Assembly (NCBI GenBank): GCA_963833225.1
Contig: CAWHXD010000019.1
Location: forward strand, 192,001-256,000
Reading direction: 5' to 3'
Length of the DNA: 64,000 bases
Source: an uncultured Chloroflexia bacterium
GTDB taxonomy: Bacteria > Chloroflexota > Limnocylindria > Limnocylindrales > CSP1-4
In this document: in pieces, positions 892 through 16,728 of the stretch
Position numbering within the stretch: position 1 is the first letter of the stretch
Layout: each line of letters begins with the position of its first letter
Position numbers and translations under genes: made by a program
Notes under the pieces: generated by a model
What the model was told of the DNA's origin: nothing
The model's input: only the letters and a program-made list of their open reading frames with translations
Databases searched by the model: none

Positions 892-1736
892 CCCCGGGTG
901 CCGGGCGCCCGTGGGTTCGGTCGGTCCTCGACGGCGCCCCACCGGCGCCCGTGGTCCTGGTGCTCGGCGGGTTCCTCACCTCGCCGCCGGTCTACCGGGC
1001 GCTTGATCGAGCCCTGCGTGACCGTGGGGCGGCCGACGTCGTCGTTGGCAACGTGTGGTCGATGGACTGGCTCCTGGCAGCGTCCCGCGGCCTCGGACCC
1101 ATCGTCACGCGCTCGGGGCGGGCACTCCTGGCGGCCGGGCGGAGGTCGGAGATGCTCGCGGGTGGGGCGCCGGTGCTGGTGATCGGGCACTCTGCGGGCG
1201 GGATGTCGGCGCGCCTCCTCACCAGCCGGGCTCCATTCCAAGGTCGACACCTCAACGCGAGCGGACGGATCGGCGCCATCGTGACGCTTGGCACGCCGCA
1301 CGCCGTCCCCATCGCCCCGGGGATCCGGAACCGGTCGGGGTTCGAGGCGGCAGTGTTCGCCAACCGTGAGGTTCCCGCCGCGACCTTCTCGCCGACCACC
1401 GGCTACCTGTCGGTCGCCTCCCGACGCGTCATGGGCCGGGACCGTGGAACGCCGCGTGAACGGCGGGCCTGGCTCGTCTACCGCGCGCTCACGCCGGAGG
1501 CCCCCACGCCGGTGATCGAGGGAGACGGCCTGGTCCCGGTGGCCGCCGCGCTGCTGCCGGGCGCCACGCACCTGGTGCTCGACGACGCGGCGCATGGCCA
1601 GGGCCTGGGCCGCGGCTGGTACGGCTCGGCCCGATTCCTGGACCGCTGGTGGCCGCTTGCGATGGAAACCTGGGAGGGGGCACTGCGGGCACGGGCAGCG
1701 GTGGTCACGGACCTGGACACCGGGTCCGGTCTTTGA
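888..1736 (+). CDS. Alpha/beta hydrolase (lipase/esterase-like)
   Basis: GHSAGG nucleophile elbow, TLGTPH, GDGLVP; GTG start overlaps MFS stop (GTGA). Confidence 0.8.
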   Translation: MTPGAGRPWVRSVLDGAPPAPVVLVLGGFLTSPPVYRALDRALRDRGAADVVVGNVWSMDWLLAASRGLGPIVTRSGRALLAAGRRSEMLAGGAPVLVIGHSAGGMSARLLTSRAPFQGRHLNASGRIGAIVTLGTPHAVPIAPGIRNRSGFEAAVFANREVPAATFSPTTGYLSVASRRVMGRDRGTPRERRAWLVYRALTPEAPTPVIEGDGLVPVAAALLPGATHLVLDDAAHGQGLGRGWYGSARFLDRWWPLAMETWEGALRARAAVVTDLDTGSGL

Positions 1737-1768
1737 CGGATTCGAGGATCCCCGGTAACGTCGTCAGT

Positions 1769-1843
1769 CGCGGGGTGGAGCAGCGGCAGCTCGTCGGGCT
1801 CATAACCCGAAGGTCGGAGGTTCGAATTCTTCCCCCGCAACCA
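1769..1843 (+). tRNA. tRNA-Met (CAT), initiator type
   Basis: CGCGGGG acceptor stem with C1:A72 mismatch, GGG/CCC anticodon stem around CAT, TTCGAAT T-loop, encoded CCA. Confidence 0.95.
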
Positions 1844-1857
1844 ACTCGCTTCACCTA

Positions 1858-1889
1858 GAAACCCCGGGACCCGACCACCCCGGGGTTTC
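1858..1889 (+). terminator. Hairpin terminator after tRNA
   Basis: GAAACCCCGGG...CCCGGGGTTTC perfect inverted repeat followed by T-rich bases. Confidence 0.7.
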
Positions 1890-2150
1890 GTCTTGTCTGG
1901 CCCCGGCGCGAGGCCGGAGACCTGGCGGCGGAGCGATGAGACGGACTGCCGCGATCCAGACCGCCCATACGCTGCGAGCCGCGTGGGCGGACTTCGCAGA
2001 ACTGCTTGTGCTCGGCGCCGCCGACGACTCCGAGACCCTTGCCTCCGCAGGCGTCGTTGCCCGTGGCGTGGCCTCCTCGCCGATGACGACGAACAGCGTC
2101 GCTCGGTGGCCGTCGCGAGATGGTCTCATCCGATCCCCAAATGCCGGCAG

Positions 2151-3435
2151 CTAGCCCCGGGTCATCCGCTCGGCGATCGAGCACCACTCCCAGAGGCGTT
2201 GCGGCTCGCCGCGGCAGGTGCTGATGTCCTTGAGCGTGAACTCGACCGGGCAGCCGTTGGCCTTCGTCACCTTGAGCACCTCGGCGAGGTCCTTCTCTGC
2301 GATCCTCGGGACCCACTGGTCCATGGCGACCATGGCCGGGTTCGGCTTGCGGCTGTAGACGAAGTCGGGCCCGATGTTCTCGGCGGCCTTGTCCACCTTG
2401 GCCCACGCGCTGACGGAGACCTTGCGCACGTTGGGGATGGTGCGGATGCCGTCGATCCGGTTGTGGAGCGGGTCGCAGCAGCCGAACTGTGCGATGCCGA
2501 AGCGCGCGTAGTAGGGCTGGTAGTAGGGAGGGACGAACTCGTTGAACGTGGCGTCCGAGACCGACACCATCAGCTGGCTGCGGCCGCAGATCCAGACGTC
2601 CTTGGCACGGACCCGCTCCGGGTTGAAGCCCGGTGCCGGGATCGCCGTCGTCTGGGCGCCGGTGCAGTGGATGCGGTCCTGGTCGTAGCCGAGGAGCCCC
2701 TTGGCCTCGAGCTGATCGAGCTCGGCCACCCGGACCTCGGATAGCGCTTCGCGATGTTGTGCAGGTGCTCCGGGCGGTCCATGAAGTCGAGCAGGATCGG
2801 CTCGGTGCCCCGGAACTGCTCGATGTCGTCCCACAGGCAGTAGGCAAGCTGGTTGCCCTCAAAGCCGTGCCAGCCCTGCATCCGGACGTCGAGGATCGCA
2901 TCGAGGCACTCGTGCGCCCAGGCCTCGATCTCGGCGGTTGCCGCCTGGTCGAGGCTGAGCTCGGGCTCGTGGAACTTCGCGATGTCCTCGGGATTGGCGA
3001 GCTGGTCCTCGTAGGTGATGACTCTGGACGACGTTGCCGCCGCCCTGGTCAAGCGTGTCCTCGGCGATGTTCAGGCCCCAGCGGTGGTCCGGATGACCTT
3101 GGCGAAGTCCATATACGGGCGAACCACCATGTCCACCCGCAGGTGGTTCCAGCGGTAGAGTCCGGCGGAGGCGCGTCTCCAGGTCCCGGGTGAAGGGGTG
3201 GGTCTCGCCGCATCTGGAGCTCGTCGGCACCCGGGACGTTGCCCGTCAGCTCGTGCCACGGGATCTCGTCGATCATCGCCATGGGCCGCTCGGGGTGGAG
3301 GTCGTTGAGCGCCTGCCACTCGCGGATCCGCTCCGCCTGCACGGGCAGCGCGGCGAGCGCGGCGACCTTGGCGGCGAGCTCGCGGACGACGGCGACGTCC
3401 GCAGCCGGGAGGCCGGTGCTGGTCTGGGTGGTCAT
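2151..3435 (-). CDS. UroD/MtaA-like (corrinoid methyltransferase superfamily) protein, split by several frameshifts
   Basis: Consecutive fragments in different frames (WHEL, RWNHLRVDMVV, FGCCDPLH..RKVSVSAW, YSRKPNP); next to a corrinoid protein. Confidence 0.55.
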
Positions 3436-3453
3436 CGGTCCGATCCCCGTTTC

Positions 3454-4070
3454 CTAGGAGGCCAGCAGGCCGCGGGCGAGGTCAACCGCGGACCCGGCGT
3501 CGGGGGCGTAGCCGTCGGCCCGATCTGGGCGGCGAACTCGGGGGTCACCGGGGCCCCGCCCATGACGACCCGGGGCGCAGCCGGCGGCCCGGACGGCCTC
3601 GACCACCGCGCGCATGTTGGGCATCGTCGTGGTCAGCAGGGCACACGCCGATGAGGTGGGCATCGTGCTCCCGCGCCGCCTCGACGAACTCCGCGGCGGG
3701 ACGTTGACCCCGAGGTCGAAGACCTCGATCCCGCCACCCTTCCACATCATCCCCACCAGGTTCTTGCCGATGTCGTGGAGGTCCCCTCCACCGTGCCGAC
3801 GACGGCGCGGAACTCGGGCTTGACCCCGGCCGCGAGCAGGACGGGCTCCAGGATCCGGTGCCGGCCTTCATCGCCCGGGCGGCGATCAGCATCTCGGGCA
3901 CGAACAGCTCGCCCTCCTGGAACTTGCGGCCCACCACGTCCATCGCCGCGGTCATCGCGTCGAGCACGGTGCGCGGGTCGAGGCCGTCGTCCAGCGCCGC
4001 CTGGGTTGCTCGGCGAGGCGACGCGGTTGCCCGCCTCGACGGCGGCGGTGAGGGCGGCGAGGTCGGCCAT
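3454..4070 (-). CDS. Corrinoid (B12-binding) methyl-carrier protein, frameshifted
   Basis: Cap domain (AMDVVGRKFQEGELFVPEMLIAARAMK); DLHDIGKNLV (DxHxxG) readable at ~3755-3784; ALLTTTM; DGYAPDAGSAV. Confidence 0.85.
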
Positions 4071-4186
4071 GGGTGCGTCTCCTGCGTGCGGCACGCCGTC
4101 GGATCGGCGCACCGGGCCGGACAGATGCTACGCCGGGTCACGCCTCGGTGGCCCGCGGCCGCGGGACGAGCGGCGTGAGCCCGGAC

Positions 4187-4978
4187 CTACTCGCTGAATG
4201 CGGCCCGGAAGGCCTCCAGGGCCACCACCGGGTCGCCCGACGCGGTGGCCTCGAGCCCCACGACACCGGTGTAGCCCTGCGCCTTGAGGGCACGGCGACG
4301 GCCGGCCAGTTGACCTCGCCGGTTCCGGGCTCCATGCGTCCCGGAACATCGGCCACCTGGATCTCGCCGATGTAGTGCCCGACTTGGCGCACAGGTCGAT
4401 TAGATTGCCCTCGCCGATCTGGGCGTGGTACAGGTCGAGCATCATCCGAACGCCGGGGCGGTCGAGCGTGCTCACCAGCGTGAGCGTGTCCTCGGCCTTG
4501 CCGAACGGGGTGCCCAGGTGGTCGACGTAGAGGTTGAGGTTCTCGAGGCAGAACACGACGTCGTTGGCCTCGCCGAGGTCGGCGAGCTCGTTGAGGGTCC
4601 GGTAGGCGTTGAGCCACATCTGCCCGGTGGTCACGTCCTGGGGCCGGAAGGGGAGGCCGTTGCGCGAGCCGTCGAGCTCGGCGCCGTGGACGACCAGCCG
4701 CGGGCAGCCCAACTTCTTGGCCGCCTCGACCGAGAGCCTCGCCGTCCGGACCATCTCCCCGCCGCCCTCGGCGTCGTATAGGTCACCGTGGACATAGCCC
4801 GTCATCGTCGACCATGTGGCGCCGATCGCGGCCACCGCGTCGAGGTCCTTGGTGGTCCAGTCCCACATCTCCACCTGGAATCCAAGGTCATGGATCCGTC
4901 GCACGCGATCGAGGTACGGCAGGTCCGGAACAACATCTCGGTGGTGACTGCCAGCGGGAACATGGGGGTGCCGGCCAT
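4187..4978 (-). CDS. Hydroxypyruvate isomerase (Hyi)/xylose-isomerase-like TIM barrel, frameshifted
   Basis: LENLN..VDH, MLDLYHAQIGEGNL, IQVADVPGRMEPGTGE motifs across two frames. Confidence 0.8.
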
Positions 4979-5123
4979 GTCGCGTGTCCTCTCCTCTGCT
5001 GCACCGGGCCGGCTCGCCCCGGCCTCGGTGGGCTCCGGTCAGGGGGGCGACTGGGCGACCTGTTCACGGTGACGTCTACATTGTGTTCAGGATCGACGAG
5101 CGGGTAAGGTTGCGGGAACATCA

Positions 5124-5137
5124 CTAGAGCGCTCTAG
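5124..5137. promoter_or_regulatory. LacI-family operator, copy 1
   Basis: Perfect palindrome CTAGAGCGCTCTAG with central CG, between divergent genes. Confidence 0.8.
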
Positions 5138-5275
5138 ACACGCACGTTAGAGTATGGCCGATGCCGATGTCAAGCCATGTTCGGCAAGGGAGGGCTGTTT
5201 CGTCGCATTGACCCGTCAGGACTAGTCCGCGTCACACATCCATCCGCGTCCACCATCACCGCTGGAGACAACCAC

Positions 5276-6274
5276 ATGCTTCGCGTAGCCCTGCTGGGTG
5301 CCGGCCGGATCGGCCAGGTCCACGCCCGTTCCATCGTCGAGAGCGGCGCGGCCGAGCTCGCCTGGGTCTGCGATCCCATCGCGACGGCGGCCACGACCCT
5401 TGCCGGGCGGTACGGAGCCAAGGCCAGCCCGGAGCCCGGTGACGCCATCGCCGATCCGTCGGTGGATGCCGTCCTGATCGCGTCCGCCACCGCGACCCAC
5501 ACCGATCTCCTGCGCGAGGCCGTGCTCGCGGGCAAGAAGGTGCTGTGCGAGAAGCCGATCGATCTCGACCTGGCCCGTATCGACGCCACCTGGGCCGCCA
5601 TCGCCGACAAGGCCCCATTCGTGATGCTGGGCTTCAACCGGCGGTTCGACCCGACCTTCGCGGAGATCAGGGCGCGCGTGACCGCCGGGGACATCGGCCC
5701 GCTGCGCGCGCTGCGCGTCACGTCCCGCGACCCGCAGCCCCCGCCCGCTGCCTATCTCGGGGTGTCGGGCGGCATGTTCCGCGACATGACCATCCACGAC
5801 TTCGACATGACCCGCTTCTTCCTGGGCGAGGTGGTCGAGGTGTCCGCGGTGGCGTCCCACAACAACGACCCGGTGTTCGTCGAGGCCGGTGACCACGCGC
5901 AGGCGATCCTCACCCTGCGCAGCCGCGACAACGTCCTCGCCACCATCGTCAACAGCCGCACCTGCGCCTACGGGTATGACCAGCGCCTGGAGGCGTTCGG
6001 CGATGCGGGCTCGCTCGAGGCCGGCAACATGACCGCGACCACCGTCCGGGCGTCGTCCGCCACCCAGACCGGGGCAGCTGGTCCGGTGCTCAACTTCTTC
6101 CTCGAGCGCTACATGCCCGCGTACAAGGCCGAGTTCGCCGAGTTCGTGGCGGCGATCCGGGAGGACCGCGAGCCGGCGGTGGGATTTGCCGACGGCCGGG
6201 CAGCGCTGGTGCTCGCCGAGGCCGCCATCGAGAGCGTCGCCACCGGCAAGGTCGTGGCCGTGACCGGCGGCTGA
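5276..6274 (+). CDS. iolG: Inositol 2-dehydrogenase (Gfo/Idh/MocA family)
   Basis: GAGRIG, CEKP, GFNRRFDP, SGGMFRDMTIHDFD, YGYDQRLE; GGAG RBS. Confidence 0.85.
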   Translation: MLRVALLGAGRIGQVHARSIVESGAAELAWVCDPIATAATTLAGRYGAKASPEPGDAIADPSVDAVLIASATATHTDLLREAVLAGKKVLCEKPIDLDLARIDATWAAIADKAPFVMLGFNRRFDPTFAEIRARVTAGDIGPLRALRVTSRDPQPPPAAYLGVSGGMFRDMTIHDFDMTRFFLGEVVEVSAVASHNNDPVFVEAGDHAQAILTLRSRDNVLATIVNSRTCAYGYDQRLEAFGDAGSLEAGNMTATTVRASSATQTGAAGPVLNFFLERYMPAYKAEFAEFVAAIREDREPAVGFADGRAALVLAEAAIESVATGKVVAVTGG

Positions 6275-6379
6275 CGCGTGGCGTCCGTTGCGGGGACCGG
6301 ACAGCTCTCCGGTCTCCGCCTCCCGCCCAGGGTCGCGTCCCGCGGCCGTCCCGCCCAGACCACGGAGGATCCTGTCGCC

Positions 6380-7183
6380 ATGGCCGAGCGCCTCACCGTC
6401 GCCGACATCCGGGCCCAGAAGGGCAAGCACCAGTTCACCATGGTCCGCACTGAGGACTGGGAGACGCTCGAGGCGGCCGAACGCGCCGGGGTCGAGATGG
6501 TCTCCGTTACGCCCGAGATGATGGTGGACCCGCGATTCCGCGAGATGGCTCCCACCGTGTTCGCGGTTCCGGGCGTGGACTTCTTCGAGCTCGGCACGGC
6601 GGACGACTTCACCCGCTGGGCATTCAGGATGCTCAAGGCCACCGCCGACGCGGTGTACGTGAGCGCCGGACTGCCCACCATCCGTCAACTGGCTGCGGAC
6701 AACATCCCGGTCATCAGCCACGTCGGGTTGATCCCGTCGCGAGCCACCTGGACGGGCGGGTTCAAGGCGGTGGGCAAGACGGCGGACCAGGCGATGCAGG
6801 TCTACCGGGCGGCCAAGGCCCTCGAGGAGGCCGGCGCGTTCGGAGCCGAGATCGAGGTCGTGCCGGCGGAAATGGCCGCGGAGATCAGCAAGCGCACCTC
6901 GCTGTTCATGGTGTCGATGGAGCCGGCACGGGCGGGGACTGCCAGTACCTGTTCGCCGAGGACATGCTGGGCGAGAACCGTGGGCACATTCCGCGCCACG
7001 CCAAGATCTACCGCAACTTCGCCGCCGAATACGACCAGCTCCAGGAGGAGCGCGTGGCGGCGTTCAAGGAGTTCGTGGCGACGTTCACACGGTGCCTACC
7101 CCGACGACAGGCACATTGTGGGCACGGATCCCGCCGAGCTGGAGGCGTTCCGCCGCGCACTGGCGCTGGCGGGCGAGGGCTGA
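6380..7183 (+). CDS. PanB-like (ketopantoate hydroxymethyltransferase family) protein, frameshifted near 3' end
   Basis: HVGLIP..GGFKAVGKT, LEEAGAFGAEIEVVP, PRHAKIYRNF; canonical N-terminal GDS motif not seen. Confidence 0.7.
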   Translation: MAERLTVADIRAQKGKHQFTMVRTEDWETLEAAERAGVEMVSVTPEMMVDPRFREMAPTVFAVPGVDFFELGTADDFTRWAFRMLKATADAVYVSAGLPTIRQLAADNIPVISHVGLIPSRATWTGGFKAVGKTADQAMQVYRAAKALEEAGAFGAEIEVVPAEMAAEISKRTSLFMVSMEPARAGTASTCSPRTCWARTVGTFRATPRSTATSPPNTTSSRRSAWRRSRSSWRRSHGAYPDDRHIVGTDPAELEAFRRALALAGEG

Positions 7184-7253
7184 CGAAGTGCCGGACGGCG
7201 GCCGGGAGGAGATCCGGCCGCCCTCCAACGGGCTCATCCCACGGCGACTGGGT

Positions 7254-8474
7254 TCATCCCACGGCGACGGGCTGAGGTGTGAAGGTCAGCTCCAGGTTGT
7301 TCCAACGTACATGTTCGGCGTGGTCACGTAGCGGCTCGCCTCGCCGACGATCTCATACTCGCCCAGCACGGGAAGCGCTTCCTCGAGCGCGACCTTGAGC
7401 TCCAGGCGTGCCAGCGGCGCACCCAGGCAGCCGTGGACGCCCTCGCCGAACCCGAGGTGTCGGAAGGTGCGGCGGTCGATGCGGAAGTCATCCGCGTCGT
7501 CGAACTGGCGCTCGTCCCGGTTGGCGGAGCCGTAGACGAGGACCACGCGCCCGCCCTTGGGGATCGTGACGCCGTGCAGGGTGACCTCGCGCGAGGTGGT
7601 GCGGCCAGCGTGCTGGAGCGGCGACGACCAGCGGACGGCCTCCTCCACGGCGGCCGGGATGAGTGACGGGTCGTCGAGCAGCAGTCGGCGCTGGTCGGGG
7701 TGCTCCGCGAGCAGCTTGAACACGGACCCGGTGAGCCCGGCGGTGGAACCGACGCCGCCCAGGAACAGGACCCGCATCAGACCCATGCTCGGACTCGGGC
7801 GTGATCTCCACGTCGCAGAACGTGTCCTCGCCGATCGTGGCCTGGACGAGGTGGCTCACGAGGTCTTGGCGCGGGTTGGCGCGTCGCTCGTTGAGCAGCT
7901 TGATGAAGTAGGCGTTGATGCCATCGGTGGCCGCCCGGGACACAGGCGTGAGGTTCGGGTTGTCGGGCTCGCGATCCTTGAGCTCGTGGATCCAGTGCTG
8001 GAGGTCTTCGCGGCCCTCCTCACGCGCCTTGGGCAGGCCCAGCAGGTCGAAGAACACCTCGTTGGGCATCGGCCAGGCAAGCTCCTGGACGATGTCGACC
8101 GTGCCGCGATCACGGAACGCGTCGACGAGCGTTTGGACGACCTCCCGGACACCCTCCTCGCGGGCATTGATCCGGCGGGGGAGCATCGGCGGCTGGACCA
8201 CGCCGCGGATCTGGTCGTGGCGCGGGTTGTCGACGTTCGGCAGGAAGCCGGGGCCGCCCTGGTCGGTCGCCGTGGCGTCGAGGTCGATCCCTTCGTACGA
8301 CAGGAAGGTGTGCGGGTCCAGCGCGGCGGCGCGGACGTCGTCCCATCGGGACAGAGCCCACCAGTTCCACTTCTCGTTGTAGTAGACCGGCGCCTCGTCC
8401 CGCATCCACTGGTAGACGGTGAATGGGTCAGCCTGGAACTCCTTGCTGAACGGGTCGTAGCCGGTAGCGGCCAT
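7254..8474 (-). CDS. Cytochrome P450 #1, frameshifted
   Basis: EEAVR (ExxR), ANRDERQF, FGEGVHGCLGA heme motif; two fragments 7488-8474 and 7286-7786. Confidence 0.9.
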
Positions 8475-8512
8475 CTGCGGTTCCTCGCTGCTCTCGATGG
8501 TTGGGTCGCGGT

Positions 8513-9532
8513 CTACAGATCGAGCACGAGCTGCGGCGTCTTGCTCCGCGAGCAGCAGATCATCATGAACTCGTTGAGCGCGCGCTCATCCTCGTCGAGA
8601 ACCGAGTCCCTGTGATCCGGGATTCCCTCCAGCACGTTGGTCTCGCACGTGCCGCAGGTTCCCTTCCCGCAGGATGACATGACGCCTACGCCCGCTGCCT
8701 CGACCGTCTCGAGGATCGAGCGGCCGGCGGGGACGGTCAGGGTCATGTTGCTGCCCCGCAGGACGACCTCGAACTCCGTGTCGACGGCGTCCGGGTCCGC
8801 CGGCTTGGCTTCGAAGCGTTCCACGTGGAGGCTCCTGGCCGGCCATGATGTGCAGTGGCGTTCGACGTCCGCGATGAGCCGCTCGGGGCCACAGCAGTAC
8901 ACCAAAGTGCCTTCCTGCGGTGCGCCTAGGACCTCGTCGAGGTCCATGCGCCTGGACTCGTCGCTGGCGTGCAGCGACACGCGGTCAGGGTCGTCGACGA
9001 GCTCGTCTACGAACGCCATTCCCGCCCGGGTGTGGCCTCCGTAGTGGAGCCGCCAGTCGGCACCCGCCGCCGCGACCGCCGCGATCATCGGAACGATCGG
9101 GGTCACGCCGATCCCGCCAGCAATGAACAGGTACCGCGGCGACGGTGCGAGGCGGAAGTTGTTGCGCGGGCCGCGAATGCGCACGAGGTCGCCTTCGGTC
9201 AGGCGATCGTGGACGTAGATCGAGCCCCCGCCGCCGTTGTCATCACGCAGGATGCCCAGCCGATAGGTGGACCGGTCCGCGGGGTCACTGCAGAGGGAAT
9301 ACTGGCGGGTTGGCACCCCGTTGCCGATGATCAGGTCGACGTGTGCCCCGGGCTGCCACTCGGGCAGCGGATGCCCGCCCACCTCACGCAGCTCGAGCGT
9401 CACGATGCCGTCGGCGGCGACGGTCTTGGCCGCCACGCGCACGTCCGCCTCGTACTCCCTGGCGACCACGGTGACGGACGTCGGGCCGTCCTGGACCTGT
9501 TCCGGGTGCATGCCAGCATCCGAAGCAACCAT
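8513..9532 (-). CDS. PDR/VanB-family oxidoreductase (FMN/NAD(P)H + C-terminal 2Fe-2S)
   Basis: RQYSLC, GGGS, IAGGIGVTP, YCCGP, SSCGKGTCGTC...ICCS; start codon uncertain. Confidence 0.9.
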   Translation of the reverse strand: MVASDAGMHPEQVQDGPTSVTVVAREYEADVRVAAKTVAADGIVTLELREVGGHPLPEWQPGAHVDLIIGNGVPTRQYSLCSDPADRSTYRLGILRDDNGGGGSIYVHDRLTEGDLVRIRGPRNNFRLAPSPRYLFIAGGIGVTPIVPMIAAVAAAGADWRLHYGGHTRAGMAFVDELVDDPDRVSLHASDESRRMDLDEVLGAPQEGTLVYCCGPERLIADVERHCTSWPARSLHVERFEAKPADPDAVDTEFEVVLRGSNMTLTVPAGRSILETVEAAGVGVMSSCGKGTCGTCETNVLEGIPDHRDSVLDEDERALNEFMMICCSRSKTPQLVLDL

Positions 9533-9537
9533 GATCG

Positions 9538-10770
9538 TCACCGTCCTCCTGCCGGCGAGAACCGCACGGGGAGATTCCACCACACGTACATGTTGGGCGA
9601 GCTCGGGTAGAACGCAGGATCGCCGTCAAGCCCGTACTCGCCGAGCACCGGGAGCGCCTCCTGCAGGGCGATCTTGGTCTCGAGACGCGCGAGTGGCGCG
9701 CCGAGGCAGCCGTGGACCCCTTCCCCGAAGCCGACGTGCTTGACCACGCCGCGGGTCACGTCGAACCGGTCGGGGTCCGGGAACTGGCGCTCGTCGCGGT
9801 TGGCGGCGCCGACGACCAGGACCACGCGGGAGCGGGCCGGGATCGTGACCCCGTGGAGCGTCACATCACGCATCACTGTCCGGGCCGTGAGCTGGAGGGG
9901 CGTCGCCCAGCGCACCGACTCCTCGACGGCCTGCGGGATGAGCGCCGGGTCCTCGAGCAGCCGGCGCCGCTGGTCGGGGTGCTCGGCCAGCAGCTTGAAC
10001 GTGTTGCCGATCAACCCGGCGGTGGACTCCACGCCGCCGAGGAACAGGATGATCATCAGGCCCATCACCTCGGCAGCGGGCCCGATGTGCTCCTCCGTGA
10101 ACGGAACCCCGTTGATCCTGGCGTGGACGATGGTGCTGATGACGTCGTCGCGCGGGTTGTTCCGCCGATCCTGGAGCAGCCGAATGAAGTACTCGCGGAT
10201 GTGCTGGTCGGCCTCGATCGCCTCCGGCGTGAACTCCGGACTGCCCGGGACGCGGCCCTTGAGCGCGTGGACCCAGCGTTCGAGCTGGTCGTGTTCCGCC
10301 TGGTCCTCGTGGGGGATGCCCATGAGCGTGAAGAACACGTCGAACGGTGTGGGCCAGGCAAGCTCCTGGGCCAGGTCAACGGTGCCGCGATCACGCCACT
10401 TGGCGAGGTGGCTTCGGACCACGGTTCGGACCGCCTCCTCATGGGCGCCGACGCGGCGGGGGAGGAACCACGGCTGGACGATGGCCCGGATCTCGTCGTG
10501 GCGCGGGTTATCGATGTTGCCCAGCGACCCGCCGCTCGCCATCTGCTCGCGGAACGTGTTGTCGATGTCCATGCCCTCGGACGACCGGTACAGGTCGGCA
10601 TCGAGGATCGCGGCGCGAACGTCCTCGTGGCGGGTGAGGGCGTACCAGCCCCAACGCTCGCTGTGCCAGACGGGGGCGTCATCGCGCAGCCAGCGGTAAA
10701 CGTCGAAGGCGTCGCGGGGATAGAACTCAGGGTCGAACGGGTTGTATTCCAATGGGGCCCTGACCGTCAT
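9538..10770 (-). CDS. Cytochrome P450 #2
   Basis: LFLGGVEST I-helix, EESVR, FGEGVHGCLGA; clear paralog of P450 #1. Confidence 0.92.
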   Translation of the reverse strand: MTVRAPLEYNPFDPEFYPRDAFDVYRWLRDDAPVWHSERWGWYALTRHEDVRAAILDADLYRSSEGMDIDNTFREQMASGGSLGNIDNPRHDEIRAIVQPWFLPRRVGAHEEAVRTVVRSHLAKWRDRGTVDLAQELAWPTPFDVFFTLMGIPHEDQAEHDQLERWVHALKGRVPGSPEFTPEAIEADQHIREYFIRLLQDRRNNPRDDVISTIVHARINGVPFTEEHIGPAAEVMGLMIILFLGGVESTAGLIGNTFKLLAEHPDQRRRLLEDPALIPQAVEESVRWATPLQLTARTVMRDVTLHGVTIPARSRVVLVVGAANRDERQFPDPDRFDVTRGVVKHVGFGEGVHGCLGAPLARLETKIALQEALPVLGEYGLDGDPAFYPSSPNMYVWWNLPVRFSPAGGR

Positions 10771-10836
10771 CTCGCGTCCTCTGGGTCTCGGCGCTGGCTC
10801 CGGGGTCACGAACGGGGGGCTCGCCGTCCGTCGCCC

Positions 10837-10850
10837 CTAGAGCGCTCTAG
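10837..10850. promoter_or_regulatory. LacI-family operator, copy 2 (upstream of P450 operon)
   Basis: Perfect palindrome CTAGAGCGCTCTAG. Confidence 0.8.
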
Positions 10851-10883
10851 TGCGGGAACGATAGCGAGGTGACGATCGGCCCG

Positions 10884-11957
10884 TCAAGACCCTGCCGATG
10901 GACAGTGACTCGCCGGTCCCCTGCGCGGCCGCCGCCAAGCGTCAGCCGCCGGGGGCGGGCCCGCGGTCTCGCCGATCACCAGGGTCGGCGAGAGCACCTG
11001 GTCGATGGGCTGGAGCCCGGCATCCTCGAGTCGCCCGATCGCGCGCTCCACCACGCGGCGGCCGATGGCGTCCGCGTCCTGTCGGATGGTGGTCAGCTCA
11101 CGCGGCGCGAGCCGGGACAGGCTGCTGCCGTCATAGCCGACGACCGACACGTCGCCGGGGATTGCCAGCCCGCGGTGGCTCAGCGTGTGCATCACGCCCA
11201 GCGCCGTCTCATCGTTGAAGGCGACCACCGCCGTCGGCCGATGGTCGAGCGCGAGCAGCTCCTCCGCGGCGCGCTGGCCGCACGCGGCAGTCCCGTCCCC
11301 GCCAACGACGTGGGACTGGTCGCCGAACCCGTGGCGGGTAATGTGTCTTCGGTACGCGCGCCGGCGGTCCGCGCTGATGGTGCCGTTCCCGCCGTCGACG
11401 TGGGCGATCTCTCGGTGGCCCAGTCCGACGAGGTGGTCGACGGCCAGCCGGAGCGCCTGGTCCTCGTCGGTCCGGATGCTGTCGACGGCCCCGGCCGGGT
11501 GGACCATCCGGCGCCCGGCCAGGACGACGGGGACCGATCCCGCGACACGGTTGATCTCGGCCTCCTCGAGATCCGGGCCCAGCATGAGGATGGCCTCGCA
11601 GCGGTAGTCCAGGAGCGTGTTGACAGCATGCCGCTCGTCGTGGCTGCGCGTCCGGCCGCTGAGAATGACCTCATAGCGAGCCGCCTCCGCGGCGTCGTAG
11701 ATCGGCGCCAGCAGGTCGACGTGGTGGAGCGCGTTCACGCGGTACACAACGCCGAGCAGTCGGGTAGAGGATCTGGCCAGCAGACGGGCGCGGGCGTCGG
11801 GGCGATAGCCAATGCGCTCGGCAACTTCACGGACGCGAGCTCGGGTGGCGTCGCTGGCGCCCGGTGCCTCGCGCATGACGATCGAAACCAGCGCGCGCGA
11901 CACGCCGGCGGATCGCGCCACATCCTCCAGCGTCGGCTTGCGATTCGGATCGGCCAT
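10884..11957 (-). CDS. LacI-family transcriptional regulator
   Basis: TLEDVARSAGVSRALVS HTH, hinge YRPDARARLL, sugar-binding domain (FNDETALG, VVGYD). Confidence 0.92.
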   Translation of the reverse strand: MADPNRKPTLEDVARSAGVSRALVSIVMREAPGASDATRARVREVAERIGYRPDARARLLARSSTRLLGVVYRVNALHHVDLLAPIYDAAEAARYEVILSGRTRSHDERHAVNTLLDYRCEAILMLGPDLEEAEINRVAGSVPVVLAGRRMVHPAGAVDSIRTDEDQALRLAVDHLVGLGHREIAHVDGGNGTISADRRRAYRRHITRHGFGDQSHVVGGDGTAACGQRAAEELLALDHRPTAVVAFNDETALGVMHTLSHRGLAIPGDVSVVGYDGSSLSRLAPRELTTIRQDADAIGRRVVERAIGRLEDAGLQPIDQVLSPTLVIGETAGPPPAADAWRRPRRGPASHCPSAGS

Positions 11958-12025
11958 GGTGCTCGCAATCGGAGAGTTAGGAATGCATCTTGACATGTCG
12001 GCGACGTTTGCCGTAGGGTCCGGGA

Positions 12026-12097
12026 CTAGAGCGCTCCAGTCGCCACTCCCGTCCTGCAGTTCGCCTCGACTGGCAACTCCACTTTAGAGCGCTCTAC
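12026..12097. promoter_or_regulatory. LacI-family operators, copies 3 and 4
   Basis: CTAGAGCGCTCCAG (12026-12039) and TTAGAGCGCTCTAC (12084-12097) between lacI and the ABC operon. Confidence 0.75.
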
Positions 12098-12194
12098 CAA
12101 GCGAGATCGCCCGGGTTCTGTCAGACCCGCGGGATCCGAGAGCGTGCCGCCCGGTCGCCACTTGGCCGGCAGCTGGTTTGGAGGAGCGAGGAGC

Positions 12195-13256
12195 ATGTTG
12201 TCCACAGTCGCCATGGGGACGTCCCGACGCCGCACATTCCTCGGGTTGCTTGCCATCGCGGCCATGGTCTTCGGGGCATGTGGCGGGGACTCCGCCACTG
12301 CCGCCCCAGGTGCCAGCGACGGCGCCGCGGCATCGCAGGCTGCGGTGTCCGGCAACGGCCCGAAGATCTTCGTCGTCGGCGGTAAGCCCGATGATCCGTT
12401 CTGGTCCAAGGTCAAGAAGGGCGTCGATGACCAGGCCAAGGTCGTCGAGGCCTATGGCGGATCGGTCACGTGGCTTGGCCCGGCGAACTATGACAACCTC
12501 GGCCCGGATGCGGCGAAGCTGATCCAGAACGCCCTGAGCCAGGATCCGGATGGCGTGATCGGTCCGGACTGGGTGCCCGAGGCCATGGATCCGGCATTCA
12601 AGGCCGTGGTCGACGCAGGCGTCCCGCTCATCGTCTACAACGCGGGCGGCATCGAGAAGGCCACCGAGCTCGGTGCCCTCAACTTCGTGGGCAACGACGA
12701 GTACGTCGCGGGCGTGGGCGGTGGCGAGTACTTCGCCAAGAATGGGGTCAAGAACGTCCTGTGTGTCAACACGCTGCCCGGAACGACCAACATCGAGGCC
12801 CGCTGCAAGGGCATCGCCGACGGCATGGCGGCGAACGGCGGCACGTCGTCTCAGCTGCCCCTGCCTTCCAACCAGTTCGGCGACCAGACCGCTGTCGCCC
12901 AGGCAATCAAGGCCTCGCTGCTCCAGGATCCGTCCATTGACGGCGTGGTCACCGTCTCCGCGGCTGATGGCACGGCCGCCGCAAGCGGAATCGAGCAGGC
13001 TGGCATCACCGACAAGGTCAAACTTGGCTCGTTCGACTTCGACCCGACCGGCCTCGACCGCATCAAGGCGGGAACGCAGCTGATGGCCATCGACCAGCAG
13101 CCGTACCTGCAGGGCTCGATCTCGGTCGCGCTCCTGAGCTCGTACATCATGTTTGGCAACGACCTGCCCACCCGCCCCGTGGCCACCGGCCCGGGCATCA
13201 TTGACGCGAGCAACATCGACGCGACGCTTGCCGGCGCTCTTGCGGGCGCCCGCTAG
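12195..13256 (+). CDS. Sugar/inositol ABC transporter substrate-binding lipoprotein
   Basis: Lipobox-like VFGAC, DPFWSKVKKG, IDQQPYLQG; strong RBS. Confidence 0.88.
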   Translation: MLSTVAMGTSRRRTFLGLLAIAAMVFGACGGDSATAAPGASDGAAASQAAVSGNGPKIFVVGGKPDDPFWSKVKKGVDDQAKVVEAYGGSVTWLGPANYDNLGPDAAKLIQNALSQDPDGVIGPDWVPEAMDPAFKAVVDAGVPLIVYNAGGIEKATELGALNFVGNDEYVAGVGGGEYFAKNGVKNVLCVNTLPGTTNIEARCKGIADGMAANGGTSSQLPLPSNQFGDQTAVAQAIKASLLQDPSIDGVVTVSAADGTAAASGIEQAGITDKVKLGSFDFDPTGLDRIKAGTQLMAIDQQPYLQGSISVALLSSYIMFGNDLPTRPVATGPGIIDASNIDATLAGALAGAR

Positions 13257-13352
13257 GTCCGTCCTCTCGCCAGTGTCGGGCCCGGTTCCGCCGGGCCCGA
13301 CAGGTTCCACTCCCGCCCGCGGCACCGGCGCGGGATGCAGCAGGTGGACGCG

Positions 13353-14414
13353 ATGACAAGGCAGGTGCAGCAGGACTCGGAAACCGGTCAGGTCGAGACC
13401 ACGGCGTCCCCGGGTTGGTCCATTGGCACCTTTGTCAGACGGCCCGAGATGGGCGCGCTGATCGGCATGGTGCTCGTGTTCGTGTTCTTTGCCGTGTTCG
13501 GCGGCAAACAGTTCCTCACCCCCGGCGGAGTCGCAAGCTGGCTCAACGTTGCAGGCGAGCTCGGAATGATCGCCCTCCCCGTCGGGCTGCTGATGATTGC
13601 CGGCGAGCTCGACCTCTCCGTTGGTTCGGTTGTGGCCGCGAGCTCCATGACCCTCGCCATCGTGTCCGGGTTCTGGGGTCTGCCGATGCCAGTGGGGATC
13701 ATCCTGGCCCTCGCGTTCGGTGTCGTGGTGGGCTTGATCAACGGCGTCATCGTCACGAGGACGCGGGTGCCCTCCCTCATCGTCACGTTGGGGATGAACC
13801 TCGCCGTCGTTGGCTTGACGCTCGGGTTCTCCCGACTCCTGACGAACAACGTGAGCGTGCCGCTCGCCGCCGGCGAGCCGTGGAAGTCGATGCTCGGCCA
13901 GTTCCTGTTCGGCCAGTTCGAGGTCGCCATCCTGTGGTGGATCGGCGTCGTGATCGTGGTCGGGTGGCTCACCCACATCGCCAAGTACGGCAACTGGATC
14001 TTCGCGATCGGCGGCGATCTTGAGAGCGCCCGCGCCACGGGCATCCCGGTCAACCGGGTCAAGATCGCCCTCTACGTTGCGACCGCCGCCGCGTCGGCGT
14101 CCGTGGGCATCATGTCCACGGTGCTCTACAACAGCGCCCAGGTCGCGAAGGGCCAGGCGTTCGTGTTCAACTCGATCATCGCGGTGGTCATCGGCGGCGT
14201 GCTCCTGACCGGCGGCTACGGATCGGTGTTCGGGATCTTGATGGGCACCCTGACGTTTGCCATCGTCAACCAGGGCATCTACTTCACCGGCTGGAACGCC
14301 GACTGGGCGAGCCTGATCCTGGGGGTGCTGCTCCTGGCTGCCGTGCTCATGAACAACACGTTCCGCAAGATGGCGCTGTCGTACAGTCCCACCGCCAAGA
14401 GGAAGAAGGCGTGA
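13353..14414 (+). CDS. Sugar ABC transporter permease (RbsC-like)
   Basis: GELDLSVGS, IFAIGGD, IAVVIGGVLLTGGYGS. Confidence 0.9.
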   Translation: MTRQVQQDSETGQVETTASPGWSIGTFVRRPEMGALIGMVLVFVFFAVFGGKQFLTPGGVASWLNVAGELGMIALPVGLLMIAGELDLSVGSVVAASSMTLAIVSGFWGLPMPVGIILALAFGVVVGLINGVIVTRTRVPSLIVTLGMNLAVVGLTLGFSRLLTNNVSVPLAAGEPWKSMLGQFLFGQFEVAILWWIGVVIVVGWLTHIAKYGNWIFAIGGDLESARATGIPVNRVKIALYVATAAASASVGIMSTVLYNSAQVAKGQAFVFNSIIAVVIGGVLLTGGYGSVFGILMGTLTFAIVNQGIYFTGWNADWASLILGVLLLAAVLMNNTFRKMALSYSPTAKRKKA

Positions 14415-15232
14415 CCGTGGACGCCCCACTGCTCCGGCTCACCGACATCAACATGTCATTCGGGGCTACGCAGGTCCTGATGGACGTCAACCTCGAGGTC
14501 CGGCGGGGCGAGGTCCTGTGCCTGCTGGGCGATAACGGCGCCGGCAAGTCGACGCTGATCAAGATCATGTCCGGGGTCTACCAGCCAAGGTCGGGCATGA
14601 TCGAGATCGACGGCAAGCCGGTGGTGTTCGGCAGCCCGCGCGACACGGCGAGGCATGGAATTGCCACAGTCCACCAGTTCGGCGGGACGTTCCCGCTGAT
14701 GACCATCGGGCGCTCCTTCTTCGTGGGTGCAGAGCCCGAGAAGGGCTGGGGTCCGTTCAAGCGCTTCGACCGCGGGTTTGCCAACGACGTGGCCGTTCGG
14801 GAGATGCGCCAGTTCGGGATCACCCGCGTCAGTGACGGCGACCGCCTGGTCGGCGGCCTCTCGGGCGGCGAGCGGCAGGCGCTCGCGATCGGGCGCGCGG
14901 TCTACTTCGGCGCGAACGTGCTCATCCTCGACGAGCCAACGGCCGCGCTTGGTGTGAAGGAGGCGGCCCACGTTCTCCGGATGGTCATGCAGGCGCGCCA
15001 GAAGGGCATCGCAGTCGTGTTCATCACCCACCAGGTCACCCATGCGATGACGGTCGGCGATCACTTTGCAGTCCTGATCCGCGGGGTCAAGGTGGCCGAT
15101 TTCCGCAAGGGCGAGAAGACCCGAGAGGAGATCACTGATCTGATGGCCGGCGGCGAGGCGATGGCCGAGCTGGAAGCCGAGCTCGAGGTCTACCAACAAG
15201 CCCACGCAGGGCATGGACCGCAGGCCGTCTGA
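14411..15232 (+). CDS. Sugar ABC transporter ATP-binding protein
   Basis: GDNGAGKST, LSGGERQ, ILDEPT. Confidence 0.92.
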   Translation: MTVDAPLLRLTDINMSFGATQVLMDVNLEVRRGEVLCLLGDNGAGKSTLIKIMSGVYQPRSGMIEIDGKPVVFGSPRDTARHGIATVHQFGGTFPLMTIGRSFFVGAEPEKGWGPFKRFDRGFANDVAVREMRQFGITRVSDGDRLVGGLSGGERQALAIGRAVYFGANVLILDEPTAALGVKEAAHVLRMVMQARQKGIAVVFITHQVTHAMTVGDHFAVLIRGVKVADFRKGEKTREEITDLMAGGEAMAELEAELEVYQQAHAGHGPQAV

Positions 15233-15346
15233 CCTCACAACCACTCGATCGGCACCAGTGACCCGCGTGCCCCGAACCGGCTTGCCCGAATCCCTCGGCC
15301 CGGGGCGTACCCGCAGCGGGGCGCCGTGAATCCTCAGGGCCCGATC

Positions 15347-16636
15347 ATGCCCCCGGCACCTGGTGCCGGCGGACGCCGCCCCGCGACCATCCTGGACGTT
15401 GCCGAACGGGCAGGAGTGTCCTCGTCGACCGTCAGCCGGCTCCTGGGCGGACAGACCGTCACCCCGCGGCCGCGGACCGCCGAAGCTGTCGCCCGTGCCG
15501 TTCGCGAGCTGGCATACCGCGCGGACCTGGTGGCCCGGTCGATGCGCACGCGGACGACGTCAGTCGTGGGGGTGGTCATCGACAACCTGCTCGACCCGGT
15601 GTTCCCAGGGCTGGTGCAGGCCACGAGCGAGGCGCTCGAGCGCGCCGGCTACGCGACCGTCCTGGGAACGGCGGGCGGGGGCCCTGGGCAGGCTGCCCTT
15701 GAGGTCGAGCTGATGCTCCGGCAGCGAGTCGATGGCCTCATCATCGCCTGCAGCTGGCCGCCCGACTTCCTCGGGTCCCAGTTGGCGCGGTTCTCGCTGC
15801 CGGTGGTCCTGACGAACACCGACGGGTCGGGCGGCTCCGTGCCGCAGTTCGGGACGGACAATCGCGCCGGAGGGCGGCTGGCGATCGAGCACCTGATCGC
15901 ACTGGGTCACCGGCGGCTTGCCTACGTCGGCGGGCCATCGTCAGCCCCGTTTCACGAGATCCGCCTCGCGGGCATGCGGGCCGCGCTCGCCGACGCGGGA
16001 CTCGGTCTCGATGCGCTGACCGTTGTTGCAGGCGATGGGACCCGTATTGGTGGCCAAGCGGCCGTCCTTGCCTTGCTGGCGGCGCGGACCGGCGTGACCG
16101 CGATTGCCTGCTACAACGACGTCACGGCGATCGGTGTGCTGCGCGGCCTCGATGAGGCCGGAATTCTCGTGCCACGCGACATGAGCGTGATCGGCTTTGA
16201 CGATATTGACGTGGCCGCCTGGCTGCAGCCGGCGCTCACGACCGTCCGCCAGGAGACCCGCATGATGGGTCGCCTCGCTGCCGAGCGCCTGATCGCGCTG
16301 ATGCGCGCGAGCGACGGGGAGGGACATCCGCCGCCGCTGCGACTGCCGATGACCCTGCAGGTCCGGGAGTCGACGGCCGCGCCGCCGATCCTTCGGCCGA
16401 CGGGAGCAGAGCGCTCGCGGTTAGTCGATCCGGGTGTAGGCGACGATCTGCATGCCGCCGTGCAGCTCGCCCAGGGCCGGTTGCAGCGCCTGGTGGACCT
16501 CGCTCACGCGCCATGCGACGGCGTTGTCCGCGGTCTCCCAGCGGAAGATCATCTGGTAGCGGGTGGGGCTGTCGGCCTCACGCAGGAGCGAGCACTCGAT
16601 CAGGCCGGGCATCTCGAGGACGGGCGGCCGGTATGA
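15347..16636 (+). CDS. LacI-family regulator #2 (true end probably ~16420)
   Basis: TILDVAERAGVSSSTVSR, CYNDVTAIG, IGFDD, VRESTA; read-through tail overlaps the convergent gene. Confidence 0.85.
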   Translation: MPPAPGAGGRRPATILDVAERAGVSSSTVSRLLGGQTVTPRPRTAEAVARAVRELAYRADLVARSMRTRTTSVVGVVIDNLLDPVFPGLVQATSEALERAGYATVLGTAGGGPGQAALEVELMLRQRVDGLIIACSWPPDFLGSQLARFSLPVVLTNTDGSGGSVPQFGTDNRAGGRLAIEHLIALGHRRLAYVGGPSSAPFHEIRLAGMRAALADAGLGLDALTVVAGDGTRIGGQAAVLALLAARTGVTAIACYNDVTAIGVLRGLDEAGILVPRDMSVIGFDDIDVAAWLQPALTTVRQETRMMGRLAAERLIALMRASDGEGHPPPLRLPMTLQVRESTAAPPILRPTGAERSRLVDPGVGDDLHAAVQLAQGRLQRLVDLAHAPCDGVVRGLPAEDHLVAGGAVGLTQERALDQAGHLEDGRPV

Positions 16637-16708
16637 CTCGGCGAAGAAGCGCTCGAAGTCGGCCGTCCGGTCGGGGTGGACGTCGAAGGTGATGTGCCGC
16701 TCGATCAT
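16421..16708 (-). CDS. Antibiotic biosynthesis monooxygenase (ABM)-like protein
   Basis: ~95 aa; MPGLIECSLLR...WETADNAVAWRVSEVH pattern. Confidence 0.65.
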   Translation of the reverse strand: MIERHITFDVHPDRTADFERFFAESYRPPVLEMPGLIECSLLREADSPTRYQMIFRWETADNAVAWRVSEVHQALQPALGELHGGMQIVAYTRID

Positions 16709-16728
16709 GCTTGGGCTCCACGCGCGGT

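Follow-up and report, generated by a model that had tools for sequence, protein, structure and literature searches.

A conserved gene cluster of soil Chloroflexia with P450 and corrinoid modules under one LacI-type operator: a predicted regulon for O-methylated cyclitols

Background

Corrinoid methyltransferases are known to act on methanol, amines, quaternary amines, thiols, aryl ethers, and chloromethane. Three-component systems of this kind, among them the aromatic O-demethylases of acetogens and Desulfitobacterium, MtoABCD, MtgB/MtgC, and CmuAB, combine a methyltransferase I (MT I), a corrinoid protein (CP), a methyltransferase II (MT II), and an activase. A second point of comparison is the rhizobial moc locus for catabolism of the rhizopine 3-O-methyl-scyllo-inosamine, where an oxygenase with a reductase is proposed to remove the O-methyl group. 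For cytochromes P450, O-demethylation of a carbohydrate with release of formaldehyde is established in the report on CYP236A (PMC6292453), the CYP236A enzymes being 6-O-methyl-D-galactose demethylases of marine Bacteroidota (PMC6292453, PMC9400963, PMC10033563). One study of pinitol degradation describes bacteria that act without a demethylation step and fungal P450s that demethylate (PMC9788770), and cobalamin-linked demethylation of glycine betaine is described for cosmopolitan marine bacteria (PMC12478193). Here we analyze a gene cluster at positions 2151–15232 of a 64,000-nucleotide stretch of Chloroflexia DNA (the window; positions 192001–256000 of contig C19 of the source assembly, G000), in which a P450 module and a corrinoid module stand around one carbohydrate importer.

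The cluster shares with the three-component corrinoid systems a small two-domain CP with the DxHxxG motif, an adjacent partner, putatively of the TIM-barrel type and the UroD superfamily, that is predicted to dock on the CP, a pterin-binding methyl-tetrahydrofolate (methyl-THF) methyltransferase in the clusters of relatives, and, at other places in G000, an activase of the RACo type and an MTHFR-like gene. It differs from them in that its MT I candidate has no Pfam, NCBIfam, or PDB sequence match, in its LacI/CUT2-ABC/iol carbohydrate context, which is neither aromatic nor amine, and in its proposed aliphatic methyl ether substrate and co-regulation with P450s. Like the CYP236A loci, it places a P450 with its own redox partner in a carbohydrate utilization locus and would use the same O-methyl hydroxylation chemistry, but here the redox partner is a single flavin-[2Fe-2S] protein of the phthalate dioxygenase reductase (PDR)/VanB type, and one regulon joins the two paralogous P450s to a PanB-like gene and a corrinoid module. 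With the moc locus it has in common a CUT2 binding protein resembling MocB, a TIM barrel of the MocC/IolE type, a dehydrogenase of the Gfo/Idh/MocA family, and an oxygenase and reductase proposed for O-methyl removal; it departs from moc in having a P450 instead of a Rieske-type oxygenase, in a binding protein that scores 175 bits against a cut-off of 420, in the added corrinoid module, and in the lack of any aminotransferase or MocR-type regulator in a Pfam scan of positions 1–19000. As in canonical iol (myo-inositol) operons, iolG scores above its cut-off, and IolD, IolB, and IolA score above theirs elsewhere in G000; unlike those operons, the cluster contains iolG alone, does so in G000 alone, and has demethylation modules added.

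We find that the conserved core of the cluster consists of the importer, the corrinoid module, the P450 module, and the PanB-like gene under one operator, and the sequences point to a real, conserved, and new form of corrinoid demethylation. Our preferred reading, to which we give a probability of about 0.55, is that of a LacI-repressed catabolic regulon in an uncultured Chloroflexia bacterium of soil for an O-methylated cyclitol with two demethylation routes.

Results and Discussion

Gene content and a shared operator

Open reading frames (ORFs) of G000 (3.89 Mb in 20 contigs, 71% G+C, rated 86% complete) were called with guidance from G+C content at third codon positions (GC3) and scanned against Pfam and NCBIfam. 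All nine components that an initial annotation had placed at 2151–15232 were recovered there, and the features of the region are the following.

1769–1843, forward strand: tRNA-Met (CAT), the left border of the cluster
2151–3435, reverse strand: MT1-like gene, a divergent, putative UroD/MtaA-superfamily protein of ~429 amino acids and proposed substrate:corrinoid methyltransferase, in about four frame pieces
3454–4070, reverse strand: CP (B12-binding), ~207 amino acids, with PF02607 (B12-binding_2) and PF02310 (B12-binding) in two different frames
4128–4904, reverse strand: xylose-isomerase-like TIM barrel (PF01261, 55 bits), the open frame extending to 5063
5124–5137: operator O1, CTAGAGCGCTCTAG, exact, between the divergent TIM-CP-MT1 and iolG-panB-like units
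5177–6274, forward strand: iolG, inositol 2-dehydrogenase (TIGR04380, 381.2 bits against a cut-off of 355)
6278–7183, forward strand: PanB-like gene of the ketopantoate hydroxymethyltransferase family, divergent (PF02548, 86.7 bits)
7286–8474, reverse strand: P450b, a paralogue of P450a found by tblastn with P450a, with a frameshift near 7787
8513–9583, reverse strand: reductase with flavin, NAD, and C-terminal [2Fe-2S] domains (FAD_binding_6, NAD_binding_1, Fer2)
9538–10809, reverse strand: P450a, intact, 423 amino acids (PF00067, 82 bits)
10837–10850: operator O2, CTAGAGCGCTCTAG, exact, 27 nt upstream of the P450a start
10884–11996, reverse strand: LacI1 repressor (PF00356 and PF13377), divergent from the ABC operon
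12026–12039: operator O3, one mismatch, in the LacI1/binding protein intergenic region
12084–12097: operator O4, two mismatches, in the same intergenic region
12144–13256, forward strand: substrate-binding protein (SBP) of the CUT2 ABC importer (PF13407)
13335–14414, forward strand: permease of the importer (PF02653)
14411–15232, forward strand: single-domain ATPase of the importer (PF00005)
15326–16636, forward strand: LacI2, a second LacI-family regulator (LacI and Peripla_BP_3), the 3' end of the ORF probably over-extended

The palindrome CTAGAGCGCTCTAG occurs at four sites in the window when up to two mismatches are allowed, against 0.05 expected, and none of 100 shuffles reached four; across all 20 contigs the same search returned these four sites and no others. 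O1 to O4 are all intergenic and on the promoter side, and the motif has the properties of a LacI-type operator, being a palindrome with a central CG that recurs in promoter regions next to a LacI gene. A scan for terminators and promoters found no enrichment of terminators and one promoter-like site (10887–10858, reverse strand), just downstream of which O2 is located. No operator precedes LacI2.

Conservation in other Chloroflexia

The cluster is present in four of four Chloroflexia genomes as a core of one or two P450s, the reductase, the PanB-like gene, LacI1, the SBP, permease, and ATPase, the CP, and the MT1-like gene. Besides G000 these are the relative G018, whose cluster spans two loci (L011 and L012, with L013 as the same place counted once), and two further loci, L019 and L020, each counted as one genome. 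Their core proteins are 52–87% identical to those of the window, the LacI1 orthologues stand at the same place with 61–64% identity, and a LacI2-like gene (37% identity) also follows the ATPase in G018. The TIM barrel is 92% identical to its G018 orthologue, and a close orthologue of P450a was found in one of 40 relatives, again G018 (81% identity). A stricter first look for the PanB-like gene in 301 genomes of the class, G000 counted in, returned an orthologue in G000 alone, a count that is therefore a lower bound.

Gene order varies among these genomes. In the window the unit behind an operator-bearing region is TIM-CP-MT1; in G018 it is P450-CP-MT1-AraC-pterin methyltransferase-formate/nitrite transporter; and in L019 and L020 it is SBP-permease-ATPase-CP-MT1, all on one strand. 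In all three relatives the operator core TAGAGCGCTCTA precedes both the P450 unit and the PanB-like gene and also stands in the LacI1/SBP region, where the sites are paired in G018 and L020 and single in L019; it is absent from every other locus compared at that point. The PanB-like gene has an operator of its own in three of the four clusters. Co-regulation has thus outlasted the rearrangements, which argues for one function, and the same operator in four genomes with three gene orders supports the genes being one co-regulated, conserved unit. The shared operator proposed from the window alone is in this way borne out by number, by uniqueness in the genome, and by conservation in three other genomes.

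The corrinoid protein

Both domains of the CP are present in the window, in two frames, and the gene is intact in G018 (95.6 and 69.5 bits); in every frame the pieces are close to the G018 protein, and GDLHDIGKN (DxHxxG) is readable in the window. All 12 sequences compared carry D98, H100, G103, S145, L147, G174, and G175, so that the protein has the two domains and the DxHxxG, SxL, and GG motifs of methyltransferase-cognate corrinoid proteins. The best NCBIfam matches of the intact G018 protein are of the MtgC and MtbC type, the MtgC, MtbC, and MtaC models all scoring below their cut-offs.

The MT1-like family

With the intact MT1-like protein of G018 (429 amino acids) as query, 7999 candidates were scored, of which at least 1808 reached E ≤ 1e-5. 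No Pfam domain was found in the best 120, any names given being hypothetical, and the gene itself has no Pfam match. A profile of 25 sequences matched nothing among PDB sequences (E ≤ 10) or in NCBIfam and only noise in Pfam; none of the 25 members reached the gathering score of PF01208 (URO-D/MtaA), one member giving an E-value of 0.26. Aligned by hhalign to six URO-D-family proteins of the same genome, the family gave a probability of 93% and an E-value of 3.3e-7 over 205 columns. In this alignment its GCC motif falls on the H-x-C motif of MtaA-like proteins (HSCG/HTCG), C322 on the Cys and a Gly at the position of the His, and the nearest ESM Atlas clusters are automatically named URO-D. 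The original label "UroD/MtaA-like" accordingly stands for a remote and tentative profile match and does not extend to PF01208 membership. H141, H258, C259, C321, C322, H326, and C397 are among the invariant or near-invariant residues, a Cys/His set that would suit a metal site of the kind found in MtaA and MtaB, where such residues serve as zinc ligands. By its sequences the family appears to be large, undescribed, and remotely UroD-like.

A tree of the C-terminal 169 residues pairs the window gene with that of G018 (support 99/95), inside a four-row clade with L020 and L014 (98/94). Two paralogues in G000 are considered below: one, on contig C8 and linked to iol genes, falls in the same 17-row Chloroflexia clade as the window gene, and the other, linked to fucose genes, falls in another group of seven rows. 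As a separate observation, the distant member in a Verrucomicrobia metagenome-assembled genome (MAG) at L079:9992–12596 adjoins hemA (glutamyl-tRNA reductase) and a cytochrome c assembly gene, the sole context of the tetrapyrrole type among the 11 distant loci scanned.

Partnership with the corrinoid protein and one-carbon machinery

A CP gene lies within 200 nt of the MT1-like gene in nine of 15 loci at 57% identity or more; in two of the six remaining loci the MT1-like match stands at the very start of the contig, and an upstream CP would fall beyond it. All three MT1-like copies of G000 adjoin a CP. Structure prediction of the MT1-like protein with the CP gave a complex score of 0.73 (runs of 0.73, 0.74, and 0.71) against 0.01 for the best control, with contact agreement among runs of at least 71% and a partner pLDDT (predicted local confidence) of at least 83. 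Of 157 solved complexes, 116 attained the mark applied to such scores, as did two of 215 mismatched pairs; these counts are approximate since our own alignments were used. The predicted interface involves, on the MT1-like side, the invariant C322, W346, and residues 367–369 and, on the CP side, the cobalamin face with residues 102 and 105 (beside the DxHxxG loop), T149, and 176–178. The MT1-like protein is thus predicted to dock on the CP, as an MT I would.

A pterin-binding methyl-THF:corrinoid methyltransferase gene stands beside the MT1-like/CP pair in G018, L019, and L014, and a URO-D/MtaA-like gene beside it in L103 and L030. Since one or the other of these flanks the pair, the entry role of MT I is left for the MT1-like family, and the family is most likely a substrate:corrinoid methyltransferase. 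No pterin methyltransferase gene is located inside the G000 cluster; the G000 gene is found at C19:332–333 kb, about 130 kb from the cluster, beside an MTHFR-like gene that is 73% identical to the one in the G018 cluster. The surrounding region (C19:324000–338000, L104) is a corrinoid hub with three MTTB genes, a CP, RACo, the MTHFR-like gene with DUF5981, the pterin-binding methyltransferase, DUF1638, and a URO-D/MtaA-like gene.

The same genes could be read in the direction of methylation, the CP, the MT1-like protein, and the pterin methyltransferase forming a split system like MetH or core-MetE that passes a methyl group from methyl-corrinoid to homocysteine or another thiol, or else methylates a sugar. 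This reading would account for the UroD/MetE-type fold signal, the cysteine cluster (C321 and C322 in all rows, with C259 and C397 in at least 90%), and the pterin-binding methyltransferase adjacent in three loci, and a core-MetE that depends on methylcobalamin has been described from bacteria (PMC7005905). Nevertheless, the family has no Meth_synt or S-methyl_trans Pfam match, the MT1-like/CP pair follows importer genes on the same strand in L019 and L020, and the genome contains three paralogues, each in a LacI-type catabolic cluster for a sugar or cyclitol that includes an ABC importer, which fits substrate-specific entry enzymes and not a housekeeping methionine synthase. We consider a methylating role highly improbable and retain demethylation as the preferred direction.

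Integrity of the frameshifted genes

Comparison by tblastn with the intact G018 orthologues reveals at least seven frame switches in the CP gene and about four in the MT1-like gene, whose pieces are 81%, 71%, and 69% identical to G018 in three frames, and P450b has one break near 7787. Taken at face value, some 12 breaks in 2151–4070 and one in P450b, with the rest of the cluster intact, would suggest that the cluster is decaying and that these three genes are true pseudogenes. The frame pieces, however, retain about 70–95% protein identity to G018, nucleotide identity in the frameshifted region (82%) is not below that of the intact neighbors (80–87%), and nearly all of the differences to G018 DNA in 2151–4090 are 1-bp deletions on the window side. 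Short-read contigs from public metagenomes with at most one other letter carry an extra base at 2739, 3081, 3160, and 3163, all in the MT1-like gene and at the positions where deletions had been deduced, so that its breaks are assembly errors and not decay; more diverged short-read contigs carry extra bases at 3161, 3163, 3642 (CG), and 3694. Wherever they could be tested, then, the frameshifts are assembly errors. The pseudogene reading was rejected for the MT1-like gene and is unlikely for the CP, and for the cluster as a whole decay has almost no probability left.

The C8 paralogue of the MT1-like/CP pair, which is 85% identical, is broken in a similar manner in the assembly, and the breaks may stem from a mix-up of paralogues when the consensus was built. 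Split frames were also observed in P450b and the reductase of G018 and in the reductase, SBP, permease, and CP of L020, which suggests that indel errors are frequent in these MAGs.

The importer, the TIM barrel, and the class of substrate

The best solved relative of the SBP is 4ru1 (E 4.9e-36), with the next match at 5.8e-15, and 4RU1 is described as the binding protein of a transporter verified for myo-inositol (PMC10747050). Among NCBIfam models the best match is the rhizopine SBP (NF052284; 174.8 bits, E 2.1e-51), and the sole other match is a weak one to TorT (E 8.6e-6). The TIM barrel matches NCBIfam models weakly throughout (D-psicose 3-epimerase, 34 bits; Hyi, 25 bits; IolO, 18 bits) and probably belongs to the class of sugar or inosose isomerases, epimerases, or dehydratases; of the earlier description as a Hyi-like isomerase, the xylose-isomerase-like TIM barrel (PF01261) is upheld and the Hyi label, at 25 bits against a cut-off of 353, is not.

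Inositol genes accompany the family elsewhere. The C8 pair ends a same-strand string of SBP, ATPase, IolE-like, dehydrogenase, TIM barrel, CP, and MT1-like genes, the dehydrogenase best matching inositol/D-chiro-inositol dehydrogenase (372 bits, cut-off 540), and adjoining the string are IolD (884 bits, cut-off 715), IolA (603, cut-off 448.5), and IolB (284, cut-off 205). A CUT2 ABC importer, TIM barrel, Gfo/Idh/MocA, and MT1-like genes also stand together in L017 and L021. In G000 as a whole IolD scores above its cut-off three times, IolB twice, and IolA as well, the IolE-like genes remaining below theirs. The C8 region (C8:584000–618000; L102, L113) forms an iol supercluster that also holds a CUT2 ABC importer, LacI, and transketolase-like and transaldolase-like genes.

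A methylated cyclitol is thus supported as the best-fitting class of substrate: the 4RU1-like SBP, the rhizopine match, iolG under the operator, and the iol-linked paralogue all agree with the original proposal at the level of class, within which the methyl-inositols pinitol, ononitol, and sequoyitol would fit best and a methylated sugar less well, any choice of an exact compound being conjectural. A methylated sugar, such as an O-methyl hexose or deoxyhexose of plant or microbial polysaccharides, would leave the logic of uptake and double demethylation unchanged. Sugar genes do accompany the family: the third MT1-like/CP/URO-D-like set of G000 (C19:416000–426000, L103) lies in a cluster with LacI, FucU, L-fucose isomerase (FucI), and rhamnose mutarotase (RhaM), from which the family probably covers methylated sugars too, and distant members stand beside GH2, GH94, and GHL10 genes. 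The cluster core lacks iolG in three of four genomes, the weak best match of the TIM barrel is a ketose epimerase, and the sole proven P450 demethylase of a carbohydrate acts on methyl-galactose (PMC6292453). Against this, the one strong solved relative of the SBP binds myo-inositol, the E-values of ribose, arabinose, and glucose binders being weaker by about 20 orders of magnitude, and its NCBIfam matches are limited to the two given above; iolG was recruited behind the operator in G000; and the MT1-like protein of the window belongs to the clade of the iol-linked C8 copy, the fucose-linked copy being in the other group. On balance a methylated sugar seems unlikely as the substrate here, and the cyclitol remains preferred. 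The L103 cluster also has LarA-like and amidohydrolase genes, and its gene content suggests methylated deoxyhexoses as a further substrate of the family.

The P450 module and the PanB-like protein

P450b is 47% identical to P450a over 241 amino acids and 67% over 174 amino acids in two tblastn frames, and both have the heme loop FGEGVHGCLG, which confirms two paralogous P450s. The best solved relatives of P450a are a CYP125 ancestor, CYP130, and CYP107 (E 5e-61 to 7e-44) and CYP124, none of them a named O-demethylase. The CYP236A2 structures 6G5O and 6G5Q fall outside the best 60 of 374 solved P450s at E ≤ 1e-20, in a comparison that did not align CYP236 directly; membership in CYP236 is defined by more than 40% identity to its members and by conserved residues binding 6-O-methyl-D-galactose (G6Me). 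O-demethylation by P450a and P450b is suggested by their context. The reductase has FAD_binding_6 at residues 90–157 (weak, E 0.0034), NAD_binding_1 at 167–255, and Fer2 at 289–360, the domain order of the PDR/VanB type, and the VanB-type designation stands; its best NCBIfam match is PaaE at 83.5 bits, below cut-off, and no equivalog model reaches its cut-off.

PanB catalyzes hydroxymethyl transfer next to a keto group. The PanB-like protein scores 86.7 bits against 28.7 for PF02548 over just profile positions 94–200 of 259, and 58.7 bits against a cut-off of 207.55 for the PanB equivalog TIGR00222. Aligned to 1m3u, it has Tyr for K112 and Ser for E114, keeps the equivalents of E181 and H136, and has Gly for D84 with an Asp two residues further, positions with catalytic or metal-binding roles in Escherichia coli PanB. 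The designation as a PanB-like enzyme therefore stands for the Pfam family and fails for the equivalog and for K112 and E114. The gene lies beside the P450 unit in four of four clusters and, in G018, diverges from the MTHFR-like gene with an operator nearby, a circumstantial setting that fits a folate-linked one-carbon role.

It may be asked whether the P450s and the PanB-like protein perform another step, such as a C-methyl or ring hydroxylation followed by a PanB-type (retro-)aldol transfer of a hydroxymethyl group, the corrinoid module alone demethylating. The P450s have no close characterized relative, and the PanB-like protein is their fixed partner in all four clusters and has its own operator in three, as such a sequence of steps would have it. 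The missing equivalents of K112 and E114 speak against PanB-type transfer, and two demethylation systems are the simplest reading of two P450 paralogues and methyl-transfer genes around one importer. We regard this alternative as decidedly unlikely and continue with two routes of demethylation.

A proposed pathway

In the pathway that we propose, a LacI repressor would bind CTAGAGCGCTCTAG in front of three transcription units, and the CUT2 ABC importer with its inositol-type SBP would bring in the methylated compound. In the first route P450a and P450b, supplied with electrons by the flavin/[2Fe-2S] reductase, would hydroxylate the O-methyl group to yield formaldehyde or a hydroxymethyl equivalent, which the PanB-like protein would probably link to folate. 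In the second the MT1-like protein, with its conserved cysteine cluster, would methylate Co(I) of the neighboring CP, from which the methyl group would pass to tetrahydrofolate by way of the pterin-binding methyltransferase, encoded within the cluster in G018 and L019 and, in G000, about 130 kb away beside RACo and the MTHFR-like gene. A division of the two routes between oxic and anoxic conditions, as in the initial annotation, is purely conjectural. The freed inositol would be oxidized by IolG and enter the iol pathway, present in several copies in G000, and the TIM barrel would isomerize, epimerize, or dehydrate an intermediate.

Several observations weigh against this pathway, and the first concerns iolG. 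It is absent from the clusters of G018, L019, and L020, and nearly all of the gene (window positions 5247–6290) is 99.2% identical, without gaps, to C5:190942–191985 (L101:10962–12083) in the same assembly, which suggests that the gene was recently duplicated or transferred, or that C5 belongs to another population. Given this copy and its presence in one cluster of four, iolG is a recent local addition, placed between O1 and the PanB-like gene. Of the initial expectation that these genes co-occur with iolG and the ABC importer in other genomes, the importer part was realized in four of four clusters and the iolG part in none of the other three; the earlier interpretation as a whole survives as a conserved, co-regulated unit for the cyclitol class, without a conserved iolG.

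The other objections are spread over the modules. With tblastn, a CP neighbor was found in one of 64 MT1-like loci at 40–48% identity (L030), and seven of 11 distant loci in a Pfam scan have no corrinoid-related neighbor, the one at L079 standing beside hemA; the four that do are L037 (adenosyltransferase and FecCD transport), L068 (DUF1638), L059 (MTTB and URO-D), and L030 (URO-D and CP). The SBP is far under the rhizopine equivalog cut-off (174.8 against 420 bits), and the MT1-like paralogue in the fucose/rhamnose cluster is compatible with methylated sugars. The P450s resemble generic enzymes of the CYP125/130/107 type and could hydroxylate something else, and the PanB-like protein has lost two PanB residues. 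The short-read contigs used to check the frames have a depth of just 2–3.5, and the P450b break near 7787 is spanned by none of them. All of the functions suggested for the cluster genes are predictions from sequence. Lastly, the literature searched, which left most subscription journals outside its scope, held no precedent for corrinoid-enzyme cleavage of aliphatic methyl ethers and no relevant paper on corrinoid or cobalamin with pinitol, methyl-inositol, or methylated sugars.

If the pathway is correct, soil Chloroflexia would keep the methyl carbon of plant methyl-inositols such as pinitol and ononitol as methyl-THF, the PanB-like protein would pass the hydroxymethyl or formaldehyde product of the P450s to folate, and a B12-dependent, methyl-conserving demethylation of carbohydrate ethers would add a class of substrate to the corrinoid methyltransferases. 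A function would then be assigned to a large orphan family, and the demand for corrinoids in soil would be tied to the turnover of plant-derived carbon. We advance as a tentative hypothesis, and a somewhat doubtful one, that the MT1-like proteins are the first family of corrinoid methyltransferases for aliphatic O-methyl ethers of cyclitols and sugars, with a P450/PanB-like route converging on the folate one-carbon pool and with paralogues that extend the chemistry to other methylated carbohydrates. With one operator over an oxygenase route and a corrinoid route, the cluster offers a compact system for comparing two solutions to one chemical problem.

Flanking genes and further observations

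An Rfam scan of positions 1–20000 returned the tRNA-Met alone and no cobalamin riboswitch above the gathering score. No RNA dataset was among the matches for 2151–8600, and six DNA datasets match this region, each with just 5–12% of the sampled words, a share from which no statement of habitat is possible.

To the left of the cluster, positions 900–1700 are coding-like by GC3 and had no Pfam match in the frame tested. To its right, the LacI2 ORF overlaps at its 3' end with an ABM monooxygenase gene (16421–16753, reverse strand), a GntR/FCD regulator (16810–17628) lies downstream of LacI2, and subunits of the xanthine dehydrogenase/CO dehydrogenase type follow (FAD_binding_5, and 2Fe-2S at 18921–19403); no operator site occurs at 16421–19403. 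On C5, the copy of iolG adjoins a SulP transporter outside any iol cluster, and the G+C content of that contig is 0.678, compared with about 0.71.

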